A stretch of DNA of 64,000 bases from Sunxiuqinia sp. (GCA_965230765.1 CBDDLR010000001.1:2696515-2760514), one strand, 5' to 3'. Counted from the first letter of the stretch, positions 1,914-61,492 are shown. Numbers and translations: made by a program. The notes: a model not told the origin generated them from the letters alone.

Positions 1914-1985
1914 ATTTTATTATAAAATCATTTTTTAATTAAACCTCGAAAGATACTATTTTCAATCCTGTATCTCGCTGTGGGT

Positions 1986-2050
1986 TGGCAAAAATTGCAC
2001 TCTTGGGTAAATTTTGGTTTGTGCATCGGCTCGTGAAACTTGCTAGTGTA
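1986..2050. repeat. Defence-associated 9-25-9 repeat, copy a (degenerate), upstream of hsdR
   Basis: TGGCAAAAATTGCACTCTTGGGTAAATTTTGGTTTGTGCATCGGCTCGTGAAACTTGCTAGTGT aligns with copies at 36489, 41622, 61424. Confidence 0.6.
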
Positions 2051-2215
2051 TGCCTTGTACGTAAAACAATCAGTTTTTTACATAGGGGCATTCTTGTTTT
2101 AGTTTGGACAAGTTAATAAAATACCACTTAAGTGCAAAGGGGTATGTGCTAAGCGAAAAGTTTATCTATAACCCGAACCCCGCAACTAGTATCACTTCTT
2201 TTTCATCACTTTTTA

Positions 2216-36252: not shown

Positions 36253-36271
36253 TTTTTTCGTCTTTTTTATG

Positions 36272-36403
36272 TGGTAACGGTAAATTGTATGTGGCGTAGC
36301 GGATTACGTGATTCTTTTCTGTCAAGATAGCATTGAAGTACGGGCGAGTGACAAACCTTAAAATACCCGCAAAACCCGCTATGACATATACAAAATGTTA
36401 CCT
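36272..36403 (-). repeat. attC-like site 6 (family B)
   Basis: GTGGTAAC(36278)...G(36397)TTACCTGC. Confidence 0.8.
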
Positions 36404-36488
36404 GCTGGGTTTAGTCTTTCCATTCATAGGACTTCATAATTTTCAATTTTAGCACTATCCCGATTTTGTTTTTCGGGTCGGCAAAAAA

Positions 36489-36560
36489 GCGATGGAAGAC
36501 AGGCAAGCTCTTTTGCAATTTTTGGTTTGTGCGTCTGCTTGTGCGAATTGCAAATGTGCT
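36489..36560. repeat. Defence-associated 9-25-9 repeat, copy b
   Basis: Arms TTTGCAATT (36512-20) and AATTGCAAA (36546-54), 25 nt spacer. Confidence 0.75.
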
Positions 36561-36616
36561 TGGCTGTGTGGGCTGGCTTAATTTATTAATGTGCAATATG
36601 TGCAATTATTGTGCAA

Positions 36617-37942
36617 TCAACTATTTTTAATAACGTAATAAGCTCCAGCTCCCTTTTGTCCACTACTTTCCAATAATTCTTTATTCACTAACTCAGTAAG
36701 GTCATTACTTGCAGTGTTTCTTGAGCAATCATTTATACTCTGATATTCACTATTCGTAATCTTACCTTTTTCTTTGACGTATTTCAAAGCTTCAATTTGC
36801 CTCGGGTTTAATCCAAGAGATTCAAAATACTCAACGTTGAAATTATCTTTCCTAAACTCCACCCAAAAACCCGACATGTCGTAATAATATTTGGGCTGGG
36901 GAATGCCAAACTGAATACATTCGTTAATAATTTTAATCGTTCCTCTTCCCCAGGATTCGATATACCCACTTCTAAAAAGAGCATTTGCAATGTCCGGATT
37001 GTAGGGTTTTGATGGATGTTTAGTCAACAATTTCTCAATTGTCCAGTTTTCAGGTAACTGTCCCTCATTCCAGAAAATCAACTTGTCGTTATAAACGCTG
37101 ATTTGGATTGGTACACCACCAGAATAATCTTTATGGCAAACAGCATTTAATAGTGCTTCACGAACAGCATTTTTTGGATATTCAAACTTTTCAATCCTGT
37201 TTAAGCCTTCATAGCTAATTGATGATTTGATGTATTTGGAGAAAAGTAAATCCATAGTTTTCTCAACCTGTTCAAAAATATTTCCCGTAATTTCATCCTG
37301 AAATTTCAATTCATCATCGGTCTCGAAATATCCAATTTTAATAAATGCACCAGTAATGTATTTTGTTGGTTTGGGATGAAACAATAGAATTGCAGCTCGT
37401 TTCAGGTAATCATTTTCAATCAACTGCAAATTGTCCGCCAAATCTTCGTCCGTATCTGTTAAAACATCATCTTCAATTCGCTGCGCTTTAACCGCTTTTT
37501 TTCTGAAAAAATCAAAAGTTTCATTCTTTAAATCGGCAATTGAAATATTTGGAACAGGAACACCATCCCACTTTTTTCCTTTGCGCTCCAACATAAATTT
37601 ATCGAGAGATGCTCCTTTTAATTCTTGTTTTGTGCTACCACTCCGATAATGATATTGTCCTTTGTAGTTTACTGGGTTTGGATAAGGTTCTACAATTATT
37701 TCAATAAACTGCTTTTCATTTTCGCCCAATAAATTTATGTCGCAAACAACACCTAAGTTGGTAACAATTTTATTGGGTAGGTTATCCATCAATCTTTTAG
37801 CATTGTCAATGCCAACAACTTCACCTTTGTCGTTTTTGCCGATGTAGATTTTGCCTCCTTGTGCATTTGCAAAACCGCAAATCCATTTAAGGTATTCATC
37901 GCGCCAGCTTTCTTTCCACTCTATGTTTTGACTTTCTGCCAT
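36617..37942 (-). CDS. Schlafen/AlbA_2 + HATPase_c_4 + winged-HTH protein
   Basis: ESQNIEWK, CGFANAQGGKIYIG, VREALLNAVCHKDY, NPDIANALFRSGYIESWGRG, C-terminal HTH. Confidence 0.85.
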   Translation of the reverse strand: MAESQNIEWKESWRDEYLKWICGFANAQGGKIYIGKNDKGEVVGIDNAKRLMDNLPNKIVTNLGVVCDINLLGENEKQFIEIIVEPYPNPVNYKGQYHYRSGSTKQELKGASLDKFMLERKGKKWDGVPVPNISIADLKNETFDFFRKKAVKAQRIEDDVLTDTDEDLADNLQLIENDYLKRAAILLFHPKPTKYITGAFIKIGYFETDDELKFQDEITGNIFEQVEKTMDLLFSKYIKSSISYEGLNRIEKFEYPKNAVREALLNAVCHKDYSGGVPIQISVYNDKLIFWNEGQLPENWTIEKLLTKHPSKPYNPDIANALFRSGYIESWGRGTIKIINECIQFGIPQPKYYYDMSGFWVEFRKDNFNVEYFESLGLNPRQIEALKYVKEKGKITNSEYQSINDCSRNTASNDLTELVNKELLESSGQKGAGAYYVIKNS

Positions 37943-37945
37943 TAA

Positions 37946-39406
37946 TTAACAAACATTAAAAATTTTGGCTCTTTCGTATTCCTTAATATTTGAAATCGCC
38001 TGCCTGTTTTGAATTTTCTCCATTGAGCGAGCTACTTTAGTACTTTCCTTATCGCTAAAACCAAGGAATTTGTTTATTACTTTCAATTCATTCTTGCTTT
38101 TAATATTCATCAAGAAAGCAGTTTCACACATGCTTGAAAAATCGAATGAAGGTTGATTAAACTCTTCAATACCTTGAGATAATAATACTACAGATACTCC
38201 TTTTGAACGGATTTCGCGCAAAATCTTTTCAAGTATTTCTTTTGATTTTTTGTCTTTGAAAACGTTATGAGCTTCATCTATTATTAAAACATACCTCATT
38301 CCTTTCATATCATTTTCAACAACAGAATTTTCCATATTCATGAAAGTGTTGTAAATGTAATTTATAATTAGGAATGCGGCTGTAAACCGAACATTTCGAC
38401 TCAAATCGCCGGATAAACTTAAATAATAGTTTTGATTTAAAAATGAACCATCAGAGTTCGTGTCGAACAAATTAATTTCGCTTAAACCAATTAATATTTC
38501 GGTTAGAGTGCTGGGCTTGTCTCCAGCAATCTCATAAACGTTATTGAGAATTTCTTTTAAAGTTGGGTATTTTCCACTATGATGATTGTCAAAAGCTTGT
38601 TTTGTTGCTTCTTTTAAATGTTGAACCTGAACCTTTCCCAACCCCGCATAATCCGTAATAATATCGACAAATTTATTTATGCCCAATATCTTATTGTTAG
38701 CATTGATATTATCTATAAACGACAGTGGATTAACAGGGAATGGCTTATGCGGCGTATCAATCAAATTTGCTTGTGTATTTCTAAAGAAATTTTTGAATTC
38801 ATTGCTTTCTTTTTCCGATTCGCTAATTCCTTTAAAATCGAGGAAAATGAAGTTTGTTCGGAAATTACTTGCTTCAACGATTCGTTCTAAAAGTCTTTGG
38901 GCAAAATAGGTTTTACCAGAACCGGATTGTCCAGCAACTGCTATGTGAGCATTGCTATACAAGATTGTGTCATTTGGCGTGAAGTAAATATCTTTTCCTT
39001 CATCGTCCTTGCCAACCAGTAATTTCCAAGGATTACAAGACAATGTTTTTTCGATATTTTGACTGTAATTATCAACATGTTCTAATCCGACAATGGCGTT
39101 TTCAAGCTCGGAAATACCACTATCAATACTGTCAATTAGAAAGTCGAATCCTGAATAATTTGCATTGTCCTCAAACAGTTTATTAATGTGTTCCAAGCCG
39201 TGGTCAACATGCATTTTTACGAACTTTCCAATATCTGTATTTGATTTGTGAAAACTATAATGCTGGCAAATTAATGCAATGTAGTAATCTTTGTATTTCC
39301 CAAAAAAAGTATCATCCTTGTAAGATTTCCCTTTTGAATCTTTCAGGTTTTGAGTGATGGAAAAGCTGCTCAAATGAGTATTTATATGTTGGCTGCGCAG
39401 ATTCAT
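37946..39406 (-). CDS. DndE-like domain fused to HerA/FtsK-type ATPase (N-terminus possibly truncated)
   Basis: DSKGKSYKDD...YIALICQHY...MHVDHGLE (DndE-like, from memory); AGQSGSGKT, FLDFKG, IIDEAH. Confidence 0.65.
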   Translation of the reverse strand: MNLRSQHINTHLSSFSITQNLKDSKGKSYKDDTFFGKYKDYYIALICQHYSFHKSNTDIGKFVKMHVDHGLEHINKLFEDNANYSGFDFLIDSIDSGISELENAIVGLEHVDNYSQNIEKTLSCNPWKLLVGKDDEGKDIYFTPNDTILYSNAHIAVAGQSGSGKTYFAQRLLERIVEASNFRTNFIFLDFKGISESEKESNEFKNFFRNTQANLIDTPHKPFPVNPLSFIDNINANNKILGINKFVDIITDYAGLGKVQVQHLKEATKQAFDNHHSGKYPTLKEILNNVYEIAGDKPSTLTEILIGLSEINLFDTNSDGSFLNQNYYLSLSGDLSRNVRFTAAFLIINYIYNTFMNMENSVVENDMKGMRYVLIIDEAHNVFKDKKSKEILEKILREIRSKGVSVVLLSQGIEEFNQPSFDFSSMCETAFLMNIKSKNELKVINKFLGFSDKESTKVARSMEKIQNRQAISNIKEYERAKIFNVC

Positions 39407-40368
39407 CCTTTAAAAATATTAAAGTTATGCCAACGGATATTTTCTACAGAAGGATAAAACTTTTCTTCGGCAGGCAATTGAATTTGTTTTCCTCGAAACT
39501 GAGTTAGTGAATAATCAGTTTTGTTTTCGCTAAATTTTGTTGAAATAAGTACATTAAAATTTTCATCTATTGATAATAAACCTCTGTCAAAAGCTCTGTG
39601 GAGATTGGGACAAAGTGCTAATCCATTTGATATTGTGTCGTTATTACTTTCAGAAAATGGAACAATATGACAAGCATCAATCATTGAAATATTAACTACA
39701 CTGTCAATTCTTAATTCTGAAATACAACATGTGTAATTATATATTTTAGGAATCTCGCGTTTAAAAACATTGCTCCGAATAAATATTTCTTCCTGGTATG
39801 ATTCTTCTTTTAATTCTTTTCTAAGTTCTAAAAGTCTTTTTGAATAAACTTCTGAATCTTCGTTTGCAATTTGATTTTCAATATCATTCAAATATGAATT
39901 ATGTCCGTAATTACCTTTTGTTTCATGAAAGTAAGAATCTAAAACAAATTGTTTTGCAATCTGGTTGTTTTCAGGAATAAGAAGTAATTCAAATAATTCG
40001 TTGTCAATCAATGCATATTTTACGGCTGTTGTGATATTTTGCAGACTTCTCATCGAACTTTTTGATTTTACCCAAATCTCACAACCTTTATTTGGAACAA
40101 GTTTCCAAAACGGTTCTGAATTCATATGATAATAAGGTAAAGCAAAGAGGCATTGATGGTTTGATGTTACCAAACTATTCCAGTTTGATTTGAAAAGTCC
40201 TACAAATTCAGGAGAAATGGAAATCTTATTGTTTGAGAACAGACCGTTTCTAATTCCTTGAAAAAGGCTCAATAACAAAATCGGTTTATGAGGAGCACCT
40301 CCATTTTTATAGTCTCGCCTGAGTTTCTCAAAACGGTTCAAATAATATTTTAAATTTTTATTCTTCAA
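39403..40368 (-). CDS. SBD-HNH endonuclease (putative phosphorothioate-dependent type IV restriction enzyme)
   Basis: APHKPILLL and LPYYHM (sulfur-binding-domain-like); ACHIVPF...NGLALCPNLHRAFDRG (HNH); TTG start. Confidence 0.75.
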   Translation of the reverse strand: MKNKNLKYYLNRFEKLRRDYKNGGAPHKPILLLSLFQGIRNGLFSNNKISISPEFVGLFKSNWNSLVTSNHQCLFALPYYHMNSEPFWKLVPNKGCEIWVKSKSSMRSLQNITTAVKYALIDNELFELLLIPENNQIAKQFVLDSYFHETKGNYGHNSYLNDIENQIANEDSEVYSKRLLELRKELKEESYQEEIFIRSNVFKREIPKIYNYTCCISELRIDSVVNISMIDACHIVPFSESNNDTISNGLALCPNLHRAFDRGLLSIDENFNVLISTKFSENKTDYSLTQFRGKQIQLPAEEKFYPSVENIRWHNFNIFKG

Positions 40369-40377
40369 TTTTGTTAT

Positions 40378-41577
40378 TTAAGCTGCTTTCAACATTACAT
40401 CTTCTTTATCCTGACGTTCAGTTTTATTCTTCATATCAAGTTCGATGTTAAACACTTCGTTATATATTTGGGATACTTTTTTGTCAAAAAATAAATCTCT
40501 TGTCCAAATTACCTGAATTGCAATAAGTTCTTGATTGGTAATTAATTCAACGTGAGGTTTGTCTTCTTGAATAATTTTTTGTGTTTCAAGCACTCGCTTC
40601 AAAATATTGGCTCTGTACGTTGGTTTGTACGTGCCCATTTCATTGATTGCTTTGGTGCCATCACGCCGAGTAGGCATTCTAATTTCAATATTATTTCTTT
40701 CCGATTCCAAATCATCTCGTAATTTCAACAATGGTTTAAGCCAATCAAAACCATTGTTAATTAGTGCAGCCATCGACTTATCAACTTTAACAACAGTACA
40801 AGTCCAGCAACCAAATCGGCTCTGTCCGCACGATGAATGTTCTTTATTTGTAACTAAAGTTGGACATTCATAATCGTCTGAACTTGCATCTGCATAAATT
40901 TGAAAAAGCTCAGAATTGTCAGCCCCCCAAGGAGAAGGGTGAGAATTTATGATTCCCCAAATTTCTTCAAGCATCAAATGTTTAATTGGAGAATAAACAA
41001 AAGTGTTTGCTTGTAACGAATGTTTTGTAAGCCGTTTCCCACGAATTTCGTGCTTTTTAATAGACTTAGCTCTTGAAGCACTTTCCGCAGAACGTGTCCC
41101 AATTAAAATGATTGCTTCTCCATTTTCAGCAACTTGCTCATTAATGTATCGTGATGTTGGTTTAATTTTTAATTTGTCGGTACACCAACGGAAAGCATTA
41201 TTCGGAACCGGGTAACCTTTTCCAATAATGTTTACCCAAAATGAATCTTCTAACCTTGGAATCGTTTTTCTGACAAATATTGGCAAATCATTTTCCCTTG
41301 CTGCTTTGCTAATTTTATTTAGAACTCGTTCGGTATATTCTACGATTATTGGATTTTCAACTAAAGTGTCGTTGCATACTACATAAACTGGTCTTTTGAG
41401 TTGAAAAGGATTTGGCATTTTTCTGATTTTTAAAAGTGCCTCCCAAACCAGAGTTAATAATACTGTCGAATCTTTTCCTCCACTAAAACCTATTATCCAA
41501 GGTTTTTCTGTGTCGTCAGCATAACAGTATTGGTCGATTATTTCGTTTATTATATGTTCAATTCTTTTATTTCTCAT
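40378..41577 (-). CDS. dndC: DNA phosphorothioation sulfurtransferase DndC (PAPS-reductase fold), C-terminus possibly shortened
   Basis: WIIGFSGGKDST, NDTLVENP, FRWCTDKLKIKPT, SCGQSRFGCWTCTVVKVDKSM. Confidence 0.85.
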   Translation of the reverse strand: MRNKRIEHIINEIIDQYCYADDTEKPWIIGFSGGKDSTVLLTLVWEALLKIRKMPNPFQLKRPVYVVCNDTLVENPIIVEYTERVLNKISKAARENDLPIFVRKTIPRLEDSFWVNIIGKGYPVPNNAFRWCTDKLKIKPTSRYINEQVAENGEAIILIGTRSAESASRAKSIKKHEIRGKRLTKHSLQANTFVYSPIKHLMLEEIWGIINSHPSPWGADNSELFQIYADASSDDYECPTLVTNKEHSSCGQSRFGCWTCTVVKVDKSMAALINNGFDWLKPLLKLRDDLESERNNIEIRMPTRRDGTKAINEMGTYKPTYRANILKRVLETQKIIQEDKPHVELITNQELIAIQVIWTRDLFFDKKVSQIYNEVFNIELDMKNKTERQDKEDVMLKAA

Positions 41578-41621
41578 TTATTTCATCTTGAAAACCCAAA
41601 AATAACAAATTATGCCATGGA

Positions 41622-41694
41622 GCGATGGCAAAATTGCAGCTCTTTTGCAAAGCTTTGGATTGTGTGCCGGCTTGTGCGGCTTTGCAAATGTGCT
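41622..41694. repeat. Defence-associated 9-25-9 repeat, copy c
   Basis: Arms TTTGCAAAGC (41644-53) and GCTTTGCAAA (41679-88), 25 nt spacer. Confidence 0.75.
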
Positions 41695-41839
41695 GCAATG
41701 TAGGCGGGATTTCCCAAACTGCCCCATAGGGCAGAAGCGCGTGGGCAAAACAAAATCTTCATCGAAGCTGTCAATTTTCTTTTTTTATTGGTTTAGTTAG
41801 TCTCTTATTTCTGGTTCTTTTTCTTCAATTTAACCTTGC

Positions 41840-41972
41840 AGGTAACGTTCAGTTGTATGTGGTCTGGCGGGATTTCGTGCAGAAATCCTGTCAGACCGGT
41901 AGGAGAGTAGCCGGAAGGTTTGACGTGTCAAACCGATAAGTACCCCGCCTGCCATATTACAATTTGTTATGT
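41840..41972 (-). repeat. attC-like site 7 (family A)
   Basis: GCAGGTAAC(41846)...G(41966)TTATGTGC. Confidence 0.85.
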
Positions 41973-41979
41973 GCTGTAT

Positions 41980-61376: not shown

Positions 61377-61423
61377 GCCCGTGCTTTGTCTTCGTAGTCA
61401 GTCTGTGCGAGGGACTAGCCATA

Positions 61424-61476
61424 CTCTTTGGCAAGTTTTGGATTGCGTGATGGCTTGTGCGACTTGCCAATGTGTA
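61424..61476. repeat. Defence-associated 9-25-9 repeat, copy d
   Basis: Arms TTGGCAAGT (61428-36) and ACTTGCCAA (61462-70), 25 nt spacer. Confidence 0.72.
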
Positions 61477-61492
61477 TGGATGTGCGGCTCGG

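Follow-up and report, generated by a model that had tools for sequence, protein, structure and literature searches.

The window, the whole 64,000-nt stretch of the Sunxiuqinia sp. genome analysed here, contains four minus-strand genes that are bracketed exactly by two co-oriented hairpin copies of about 80 nt, designated b (36493-36573, plus strand) and c (41626-41707, plus strand). A first-pass annotation had proposed that these repeats enclose exactly the four genes, and both copies were found where it had placed them; the arm-to-arm distance, given as about 5.13 kb (36512 to 41644), measured 5132 nt. Copy b is a trailer-type structured hairpin (P1, T.T / C:G / T.T, P2 and a 25-nt loop; covariance model R1, 89.5 bits), and 44 nt separate its end from the stop of the last gene at 36617. 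Copy c is a leader-type structured hairpin (R1, 75.7 bits) located upstream in the sense of the genes, with 49 nt between it and the first-gene start at 41577. Matches to the core TTTGGNTTGYGYRNNNGCTYGTG fall at 36521, 41654, 2013 and 61437, each on the plus strand; dinucleotide-preserving shuffles gave none. Copy a (1985-2065, plus strand), of the leader type, lies upstream of hsdR and outside the attC array, with a degenerate partner 6.4 kb leftward at C1:2692062. The hsdRSM operon near copy a also contains a Y1 transposase gene, which is probably an IS200-like insertion. Copy d (61409-61489, plus strand) takes the trailer position of a type II R-M cassette, and its partner at C1:2760817 (L009:303-381) falls just past the window end and is followed by an attC site. 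The R-M cassette had been said to show the same order of elements as the four-gene locus; that order is present, together with the second hairpin copy at its far end beyond the window.

All four cargo genes are read on the minus strand. The first (40378-41577) encodes a 399-aa DndC-like protein of the PAPS-reductase fold (PADLOC DndC, 3.5e-133), and the second (39403-40368) a 321-aa HNH endonuclease (Pfam PF13391). The third (37946-39406) encodes a 486-aa protein in which a DndE-like N-terminus is fused to a HerA/FtsK-type ATPase (Pfam PF08870 and P-loop families), with a PADLOC match to the C-terminal region of DndH, and the fourth (36617-37942) a 441-aa Schlafen AlbA_2 and HATPase_c_4 protein (Pfam). 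Pfam and PADLOC searches of the four genes found no DndA, DndB or DndD in the module. We therefore rejected a full Dnd phosphorothioation system (DndABCDE with DndFGH): DndC is clear, the DndE-like domain is fused to the HerA-type ATPase, and the HNH nuclease and the AlbA_2 protein fill the remaining places. Judged from its genes, the module is best called Dnd-like. The HNH gene marks its variable slot, which holds other DNA in L059, L060, L061 and L063. The same DndC core also occurs without any surrounding repeats (L061), and homologues of the AlbA_2 gene adjoin b-type copies next to other cargo in G017 (twice), G138 and L009.

The locus lies in an attC array. Covariance model R2 identified 146 attC sites in this genome, forming a co-oriented array with an integrase-like gene at one end, and the window represents the far end of an array of about 190 kb. 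Two of these sites flank the four genes on the plus strand, one downstream in the gene sense (36271-36409; 103 bits; C1:2732785-2732923) and one of the neighbouring, upstream cassette (41839-41978; 128.9 bits; C1:2738353-2738492). We take the former as the Dnd-like cassette's own. Since symmetric end boxes cannot assign a flanking attC, this assignment relied on a duplicated cassette, in which the attC body moves with the content to its right (plus-strand coordinates), and on gene orientation and integrase position. The integrase-like gene encodes a 379-aa tyrosine recombinase that adjoins the first attC on contig 2, the window's array being on another contig; against TIGR02249 it scored 114 + 94 bits, under the curated integron-integrase cut-off of 265. 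An integron cassette usually consists of one promoterless ORF of about 0.5-1 kb. With four genes in 5.4 kb, compared with a median cassette content of 1.1 kb in the same array, the Dnd-like cassette is ruled out as a typical small single-ORF cassette. Nine of the 10 hairpin copies in the genome lie within or beside the attC array; one pair (copy a and its degenerate partner) is outside it. Hairpin pairs were found in 4 of the 12 cassettes of at least 3 kb and in none of the 90 shorter ones. The other 8 of the 12 longest cassettes have no pair, so the repeats are not required for cassettes of 3-4 kb.

The hairpin element has two helices, outer P1 (5-8 bp) and inner P2 (9-11 bp), a pair of conserved 1x1 mismatches, and a conserved 25-nt loop containing a tandem TTGTGCG. 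The first-pass description of a 9-25-9 repeat was therefore incomplete. Between 94.7 and 96.1% of stem cells are paired, 12 of the 16 stem pairs show compensatory changes, and stem covariation exceeds every shuffle and every slid control. The wobble-pair bias favours the strand antisense to the cargo genes: the modelled strand has 22 G.U pairs versus 5 A.C pairs, and the metagenome set has 26 G.U pairs versus 16 mismatches of all other kinds, counts that a strand-specific mutation bias could inflate and that come from related copies which are not independent. This is the same strand as that of attC model R2, where the attC stem has a conserved G.T pair. Rfam 15 has no family matching in the window, and permissive filters around copy b gave only a chance match to GOLLD (E = 3); the element was also without a match in the phage collection searched.

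Copies b and c are two old, differentiated types without concerted evolution. Identity between b copies of different loci is 85%, whereas b and c share 59.8% both within one locus and across different loci, with longest shared runs of 12-13 nt. The c type is likewise conserved across loci. Every copy c precedes its first gene by 20-90 nt, and copy b follows closely on the last stop; in L060 only the gene-proximal half of c is left.

Outside the hairpins, the homology extends into a two-armed shell whose order on the plus strand is R' box, AT-rich spacer, IR-L, b, cargo, c, small GC hairpin, IR-R, AT-rich spacer and R'' box. In the window, homology between shells begins at the left end box GTTACCTGC (36397-36405, plus strand; alignment A4), an R-box half complementary to 41838-41846, and ends at the right end box GCAGGTAAC at those positions (plus strand; alignment A5). 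The start of the cassette is complementary to the inverse core (R'') of its own attC in the window (GTTACCTGC/GCAGGTAAC), with covarying variants in L048, L054 and L062; the end boxes covary left and right as GTTACCAAC/GTTGGTAAC, GTTAGCTGC/GCAGCTAAC and GTTGTATGC/GCATACAAC. Inside the boxes, the subterminal inverted repeat IR-L GATTTTGTTTT (36462-36472, plus strand), 5' of copy b, is the perfect complement of its partner IR-R AAAACAAAATC (41747-41757, plus strand). IR-L keeps a fixed position in most shells, about 27-30 nt 5' of b. Complementarity of IR-L and IR-R spans 11-16 nt at fixed positions in at least four covarying sequence variants, and the mean longest complement is 13.8 nt versus 6.0 (maximum 10) for shuffled flanks. 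Both inverted pairs (R'/R'' and IR-L/IR-R) keep their complementarity across 2.5-8.4 kb of cargo despite sequence change. The leader arm also carries a small conserved GC hairpin, CTGYCC-N4-GGRCAG (41719-41734, plus strand; alignment A5 and all arms compared).

The hairpin element is present in 39 of 61 related genomes and also occurs in Cytophagales, which makes two orders of Bacteroidota in all; at least 81 metagenome contigs from marine, sediment and fermenter sources carry it. Of 60 relatives, 30 carry the motif together with an IntI homologue, 8 carry the motif alone, 6 have IntI without the motif and 16 lack both. Without exception the hairpins come as b...c pairs in the same orientation, with 2.5-8.4 kb of cargo between them, and they are nearly always on the opposite strand from the cargo genes. 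The shells in L047, L048, L051 and L054 have flanking attC sites as well. Arms homologous to 36397-36580 and 41620-41846 flank differing cargo in many genomes and metagenome contigs, so the prediction that the same shell exists with other defence cargo was borne out many times. The cargo is mostly anti-phage, including Shango, Zorya, Mokosh, DISARM, Avs4, Qat and R-M systems, and at least 20 different kinds of full-size anti-phage systems are carried in shells. About a third of the cargo signature proteins tested had no PADLOC match.

The first-pass annotation had interpreted the locus as nested mobility, in which recombination between b and c releases about 5.13 kb and leaves an empty shell. 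A replaceable module bracketed inside a cassette is indeed what we found, but recombination between b and c as the mechanism was not borne out: no empty shell, hybrid copy or junction contig was detected, and the two types are differentiated. Empty shells were absent from 151 family genomes, 401 order genomes and the metagenome scan. The flank of b was never adjacent to the flank of c in the 151 family genomes, and the inverted-flank pattern gave only palindromic chance matches, at about the control rate, in the 401 order genomes (few of them of the organism's own family). A hybrid copy, with the 5' flank of b and the 3' flank of c, was found 0 times in the metagenome scan, compared with at least 81 normal b copies as a positive control, and the shortest b-to-c spacing observed was 2.5 kb. 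No b/c junction occurred among the assembled contigs of the source sample, in which rare events would not be revealed. Two odd contig joints were seen there, 36409>41829 (21-nt side) and 41969>36273 at depth 8.4; both most likely come from paralogous attC sites or strain variants. Some cargo breakpoints fall between genes and away from the hairpins, the AlbA_2 gene being retained in G017 and the HNH gene swapped in L059-L063. With recombination between b and c unsupported and some breakpoints between genes, the suggested second mechanism of module loading or exchange is only possible.

We favour, with about even confidence, a reading in which the conserved non-coding two-armed shell, with b as its trailer element and c as its leader element, provides the integron cassette's own accessory arms, between which the cargo has been replaced over evolution. 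The hairpins would form in single-stranded DNA, on the same strand as the recombining (bottom) strand of attC. Once the cassette is excised as a single-stranded circle, or while its integrated strand is looped out, IR-L would pair with IR-R and R' with R''; the paired arms would assemble around attC and draw together two attC sites that lie far apart. The conserved 25-nt loops are a candidate protein docking site. The arms may in this way aid the integrase with cassettes much longer than usual, and cargo would be replaced by recombination in or beside the conserved arms rather than by deletion between b and c. More tentatively, the arms may form an 'extended attC', in which the hairpins and the 11-16-nt inverted pair zip the ends of a long cassette on the recombining strand, recruit a factor, lift the length limit and let Bacteroidota integrons bank and trade full-size defence systems as single cassettes, while doubling as portable homology for cargo swaps; we regard this fuller version as possible, on balance improbable.

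The arms could act in transcription instead: read in the direction of the genes, a T-run, TTTT(T)G, comes after the c-type hairpin but not after the b type, and TTTGGG comes after the small GC hairpin. As an expression or insulation module, they would block transcription entering from neighbouring cassettes, provide or control a cassette-borne promoter, and stabilise or end the transcript of the operon. We consider this doubtful, though worth weighing. The constant placement of c upstream of the first gene and of b right after the last stop is in line with it, as are the survival of the gene-proximal half of c in L060, a -7-like TAnnTTTG box of their own in about half of the cargoes and the position of the window beyond the reach of the integron promoter; if it is true, defence operons could be expressed far from that promoter. 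However, the G.U counts favour the strand opposite the genes, and the complementarity of IR-L/IR-R and of the end boxes across the cargo would be left unexplained. The Bacteroidota promoter consensus is TTTG / TAnnTTTG. Nowhere inside the hairpin do these boxes fit with the canonical -33/-7 spacing, and we rejected a promoter of this consensus within it.

It is unlikely that a separate enzyme recognises the two hairpins and, independently of the integrase, excises or loads what lies between them; such an enzyme could be a single-strand-specific HUH protein or some other site-specific recombinase supplied in trans. The hairpins are co-oriented and imperfect, with mismatches conserved on one strand, a geometry found at IS200/IS605 ends and in initiation and termination at two rolling-circle origins. 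Homology between shells with differing cargo often stops at the inner edges of b and c, the DndC core is shell-free in L061, and the genome has ten Y1 transposase genes. Set against this are the missing empty shells, hybrids and source-sample junction contigs described above, the lack of spacings below 2.5 kb, the fact that b and c never homogenise, the shells without a recombinase gene inside and the breakpoints between genes. The Y1 transposases were rejected as the cognate enzyme, as none of the ten genes is flanked by the motif. An IS200/IS605-type transposon or PATE was rejected as well: the hairpins are in direct orientation, but we found neither a Y1 gene in any shell or flanked by the motif nor empty sites.

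Very unlikely is a non-autonomous transposon or REP/MITE-like selfish element that hopped into gene-less cassettes, with IR-L/IR-R as terminal inverted repeats for a transposase encoded elsewhere: the 11-16-nt repeats do sit at fixed subterminal positions and short direct repeats recur in the spacers beyond them (GGTTTAGT ... TTCAATTT), but copy numbers are low (1-25 per genome) and limited to cassette arrays, point changes in mid-repeat are matched exactly at the other end, which fits base pairing better than protein recognition, and conservation of the arms includes the end boxes, which lie beyond the inverted repeats. A dispersed REP/MITE repeat was likewise rejected, with 10 copies in the genome, 9 of them in or beside the array, and 1-25 clustered copies in relatives.

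The favoured reading, accessory arms of the cassette itself, can be set beside several known systems. Sedentary chromosomal integrons hold cassettes, some of them with defence genes (Darracq et al., 10.1101/2024.07.02.601686; Kieffer et al., 10.1101/2024.07.02.601719), that resemble the unit in the window: it too is bounded by attC, has end boxes that pair across the cargo, belongs to an array of at least 146 co-oriented sites and carries anti-phage cargo. Integron cassettes are reported to be under a size constraint, and the defence systems inside them are small and 'streamlined' (bioRxiv 10.1101/2024.07.02.601686); the shells instead hold full multi-gene systems of 2.5-8.4 kb, and they have conserved non-coding arms with two structured hairpins plus another inverted pair that covaries. 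Such cassette arms are not described in the papers covered by our literature search. IS200/IS605 elements, PATEs and REP/RAYT share with the shells two co-oriented, imperfect one-strand hairpins at the unit ends with conserved stem mismatches, and a single-strand-specific logic is plausible for both. In contrast to those elements, the shell unit has no transposase, its hairpin is far larger with a conserved 25-nt loop, its ends are differentiated, its copies are tied to attC arrays, and no empty sites or hybrids were found. The Frpo/ssi type of single-strand promoters and priming signals of plasmid leading regions also consists of long, imperfect hairpins on one strand, and transcription templated by the folded plus strand at hairpin c would read the cargo in sense; promoter boxes could not be fitted, however, and the b copy at the end of the operon would have no obvious role there. 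As a working analogy, the arms may work like recombination-site accessory sequences. The arm-type sites of lambda att and the accessory regions of cer/psi (Xer) are, like the arms, conserved DNA beside the crossover. They shape the synapse without being exchanged themselves and act as double-stranded protein-binding arrays, whereas the evidence on the arms points to folded single strands and base pairing between the two ends.

Whatever its role, the scaffold is a defined set of cis-elements, and the b...c pair can serve as a sequence marker for defence cargo. With about a third of the tested signature proteins lacking a PADLOC match, this marker could guide the discovery of new systems. The usual view has integron cassettes confined to small units, mostly of one gene, and the defence systems found in them so far as miniaturised, whereas the shells go with cassettes of 2.5-8.4 kb. 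If the arms help recombination, they would explain how large modules enter the integron economy, which bears on how cassettes are built.

The cassette that carries the Dnd module is flanked by attC sites at 36271-36409 and 41839-41978, as located by R2, a covariance model from 20 attC-like sites of the surrounding array (alignment A6). Its cargo genes lie on the minus strand and encode a DndC-like protein (PADLOC DndC, 3.5e-133), an HNH nuclease (39403-40368), a DndE-like domain fused to a HerA-type ATPase and a Schlafen AlbA_2/HATPase_c_4 protein (36617-37942). The first-pass annotation held that a pair of repeats brackets these four Dnd-like genes, and this was borne out: both copies are in place, the trailer-type copy b (36493-36573) 44 nt past the last stop and the leader-type copy c (41626-41707) 49 nt ahead of the first start. 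Within the window the conserved core is present at four places, always on the plus strand, and is absent from shuffled sequence.

Each copy is a hairpin: between its outer and inner helices lie two conserved 1x1 mismatches that enclose a C:G pair, and its 25-nt loop carries tandem TTGTGCG. The element matches no Rfam family. Paired cells amounted to 94.7% among 41 copies from genomes and, among 104 distinct metagenome copies, to 96.1% overall and 98.8% in the main helix, and in 12 of the 16 stem pairs both partners had changed, more than in any shuffle or slid control (the alignments are fitted to the model and the copies related, which biases these counts towards structure). Given the slid controls, a real helix is hard to doubt. 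On the modelled strand G.U pairs outnumber A.C pairs (22 versus 5), and the metagenome copies have 26 G.U pairs versus 16 mismatches of every other kind. This is good but not final evidence that the hairpin would fold on the strand antisense to the cargo, as part of the signal could come from strand-biased mutation. The same strand was used to model the attC sites, where attC shows a conserved G.T pair. With the hairpin covariance model (R1) we found ten copies in the window's own genome (G000), nine within or next to the array and all ten in one orientation. Among relatives across the order, 39 of 61 genomes have the hairpin, with 1-25 clustered and co-oriented copies each, and the b-type occurs on at least 81 metagenome contigs.

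The hairpins belong to a conserved non-coding scaffold around the cargo, which we call the shell. BLAST and alignment against other genomes indicated that homology starts exactly at GTTACCTGC (36397-36405), continues through copy b, restarts at copy c and stops exactly at GCAGGTAAC (41838-41846); beyond these end boxes the attC bodies differ between shells, as does the cargo within them. R' and R'', the end boxes, are complementary to each other, and they covary from shell to shell (CCAAC/GTTGG, AGCTGC/GCAGCT, GTATGC/GCATAC). An integron cassette is expected to show such pairing between its first bases and its own inverse core. Beyond the repeats described in the first-pass annotation there is an additional inverted pair, IR-L (36462-36472, ~27-30 nt 5' of b) and IR-R (41747-41757, ~45 nt 3' of c). 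In most of 55 shells (17 from genomes, 38 from metagenomes and a Persicobacter replicon) the two are perfectly complementary over 11-16 nt at fixed positions, and the pair comes in at least four covarying forms (GATTTTGTTTT, GAAAAAATTAGTTTTT, GAAAAAAATAGTTTTT, GAAAAAAACAGTTTTT). The longest complement in the 38-shell set averaged 13.8 nt, versus 6.0 nt (maximum 10) for shuffled flanks. The shell contains two inverted pairs and one direct pair, in the order R', spacer, IR-L, b, cargo, c, small GC hairpin, IR-R, spacer, R''. Short direct repeats (GGTTTAGT ... TTCAATTT) are common to its two AT-rich outer spacers (36406-36461, beyond IR-L, and 41758-41837, beyond IR-R) and follow each other in the same order in both; base composition, an ancient duplication or duplication of a target may account for them. 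The main rival to a role for folded DNA is that the shell arms serve expression and insulation. Such a module would suit the places where b and c lie and the T-runs read in gene sense, but it leaves the strand bias and the long-range complementarity unexplained, and we consider it rather unlikely.

Shells of the same kind with other cargo, which the first-pass annotation had proposed to look for, were found many times in the same genome, in relatives and in metagenomes. Hairpin pairs in the genome surround five gene sets: hsdRSM (outside the array, its partner copy being degenerate), the Dnd-like module, two type II R-M systems and a PrimPol/CapP/AlbA_2 set. The hsdR-hsdS-hsdM operon is bracketed by copy a, a leader-type copy upstream of hsdR, and a degenerate b-like copy at C1:2692062 (C1 and C2, contigs 1 and 2); inside the operon, just left of the window, is a gene for a 154-aa Y1 (IS200-like) transposase (C1:2693758-2694222, L056:11759-12223). 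At the head of a type II R-M cassette, between the leader hairpin and a 99-aa gene, the palindrome TTGACAAAAGT(A/T)GTCAACA occurs twice (L009:230-300, C1:2760744-2760814) and looks like an operator for a controller protein. Cargo in relatives includes Shango plus an AlbA_2 gene, a set resembling DndD/PbeC, a C5-methylase plus a GHKL ATPase (in four genomes), a methylase together with a CARF protein, Zorya type I plus a PD-(D/E)xK nuclease, PDC-S37/Hhe, a DdmD-like protein, a Mokosh-like protein and a FecR/TonB-receptor-like set that is not defence-like in appearance (two genomes). For metagenome shells, 14 of 20 signature proteins matched PADLOC models: Qat, Mokosh, Avs4, TGT, PDC-S06, DISARM DrmA, DpdF-like, pAgo-associated REase, Zorya, type I R-M, viperin-like, Snf2/HKD and two weaker matches. 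All cargo ORFs lie opposite in strand to the motif in 33 of 34 metagenome shells; the remaining one (L094:2726-6654) has three cargo ORFs on the hairpin strand, and those tested had no PADLOC match. A hairpin pair also surrounds a Shango (SngABC-sized) operon on a 1.58-Mb replicon of the Cytophagales isolate Persicobacter sp. JZB09 (L169, CP012852.1:991035-997124), indicating that shell and cargo have crossed orders.

The slot that varies in the Dnd-like module is the HNH gene. In four relatives (L059, L060, L061 and L063) it is swapped: the DndC and DndE-ATPase genes are 75-82% identical in DNA, and 2.4 kb of other DNA occupies the HNH interval. The DndC core also exists without the shell, in L061 (protein 83% identical, homology ending 6 nt upstream of the start codon) and likewise in homologues at 64-71% identity, and therefore module and shell have separate histories. 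At L060:430-545, upstream of a 91%-identical DndC gene, only the gene-proximal half of the leader hairpin is left and the distal half is unrelated sequence; this contig, labelled a Woesearchaeota MAG, is probably misbinned. Shells whose cargo is unrelated repeatedly have a 441-443-aa AlbA_2/HATPase_c_4 gene directly beside the b-type hairpin (in the window and at L041:8326-9651, L049:6697-8025, L051:896-2227 and L009:7945-9273). It accompanies Dnd-like, Shango, DndD-like, PDC-S37 and PrimPol/CapP cargo and may be a semi-resident part of the shell.

The first-pass annotation had read b and c as a second mobility mechanism inside the cassette, with the Dnd module as its cargo. Exchange by b x c recombination is unsupported: the genomes and metagenomes searched gave no empty shells, no hybrids and no b-c homogenisation. 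Between shells, b-b identity is 85% and c-c identity 74%, while b-c identity is 59.8% both within a shell and between shells, and thus the two copies of a shell do not homogenise; by sequence, b and c are two differentiated types. The longest runs that they have in common in the window are 12-13 nt, a poor substrate for homologous recombination. A b flank was never adjacent to a c flank in 151 family genomes, a palindrome-flank pattern for empty shells gave chance matches only in 401 genomes of the order, and a metagenome scan for hybrid copies (b 5' flank with c 3' flank) returned 0 versus at least 81 normal b copies. Where a contig bears two or more copies (40 contigs), b and c stand 2.5-8.4 kb apart, and the sole short spacings (350-650 nt) are c - attC - b, that is, two neighbouring shells. 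No b/c joint was seen in source-sample contigs, which are blind to rare events. These contigs do contain a joint from 41969 back to 36273 (depth 8.4 versus 22 for the main path) and one skipping from 36409 to 41829 (with a 21-nt side); neither looks like a simple integrase product, and they may come from paralogous attC sites or a strain variant. Some cargo replacements have breakpoints between genes, away from the hairpins: in one relative (G017) the AlbA_2 gene is kept alongside Shango, and the HNH slot is exchanged in the four relatives named above. We judge a separate recombination system of this sort improbable. That the shell is a selfish transposon-like element is less likely still, and very improbable.

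From ~29.5 kb to its end, the window is part of a very large attC-like array, with 146 R2 matches in the genome. Matches extend over C1:2726073-2890166, to the contig end (a stretch that includes window 29559-64000), and on contig 2 they adjoin a gene for a 379-aa tyrosine recombinase (C2:1083423-1084562), this part of the array with its recombinase gene spanning C2:1083423-1110148. This integrase-like protein is encoded in the same orientation as the cassettes and scores under the curated integron-integrase cut-off (TIGR02249). The array is spread across two contigs, and ~59 kb of attC-free DNA follows the contig-2 part. Among 60 relatives, which are related genomes and not independent, 30 have both the motif and an IntI homologue, 8 carry the motif but no IntI, 6 the reverse, and 16 lack both. 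In the own genome, hairpin pairs occur in 4 of 12 cassettes of at least 3 kb and in 0 of 90 shorter ones. In structure the shell-bearing unit conforms to an integron cassette; compared with a typical one, the Dnd-like unit is atypical in size and gene number. It does not qualify as an IS200/IS605-like element or a REP/MITE repeat and matches no Rfam family. Our partial coverage of the literature yielded no description of conserved hairpin-bearing cassette arms, which is absence of evidence only.

The anatomy, the covariation and the links to attC arrays, to integrase homologues and to cassette length are established. We give an even chance to the family of explanations in which the arms would act as folded single-stranded DNA in the cassette; within it, a specific 'extended attC' mechanism is possible, and we offer it tentatively. 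Around the attC of an excised circle the order would be b, IR-L, spacer, R'', attC body, R', spacer, IR-R, c, and because of this order IR-L:IR-R pairing would lengthen the attC stem, with the two hairpins at the stem base. Were the cassette integrated and single-stranded, these pairings would loop the cargo out and place side by side the two attC sites whose synapsis excision requires. Recombination between attC sites falls with cassette length (bioRxiv 10.1101/2024.07.02.601686), a loss that such looping-out would counter in long cassettes.
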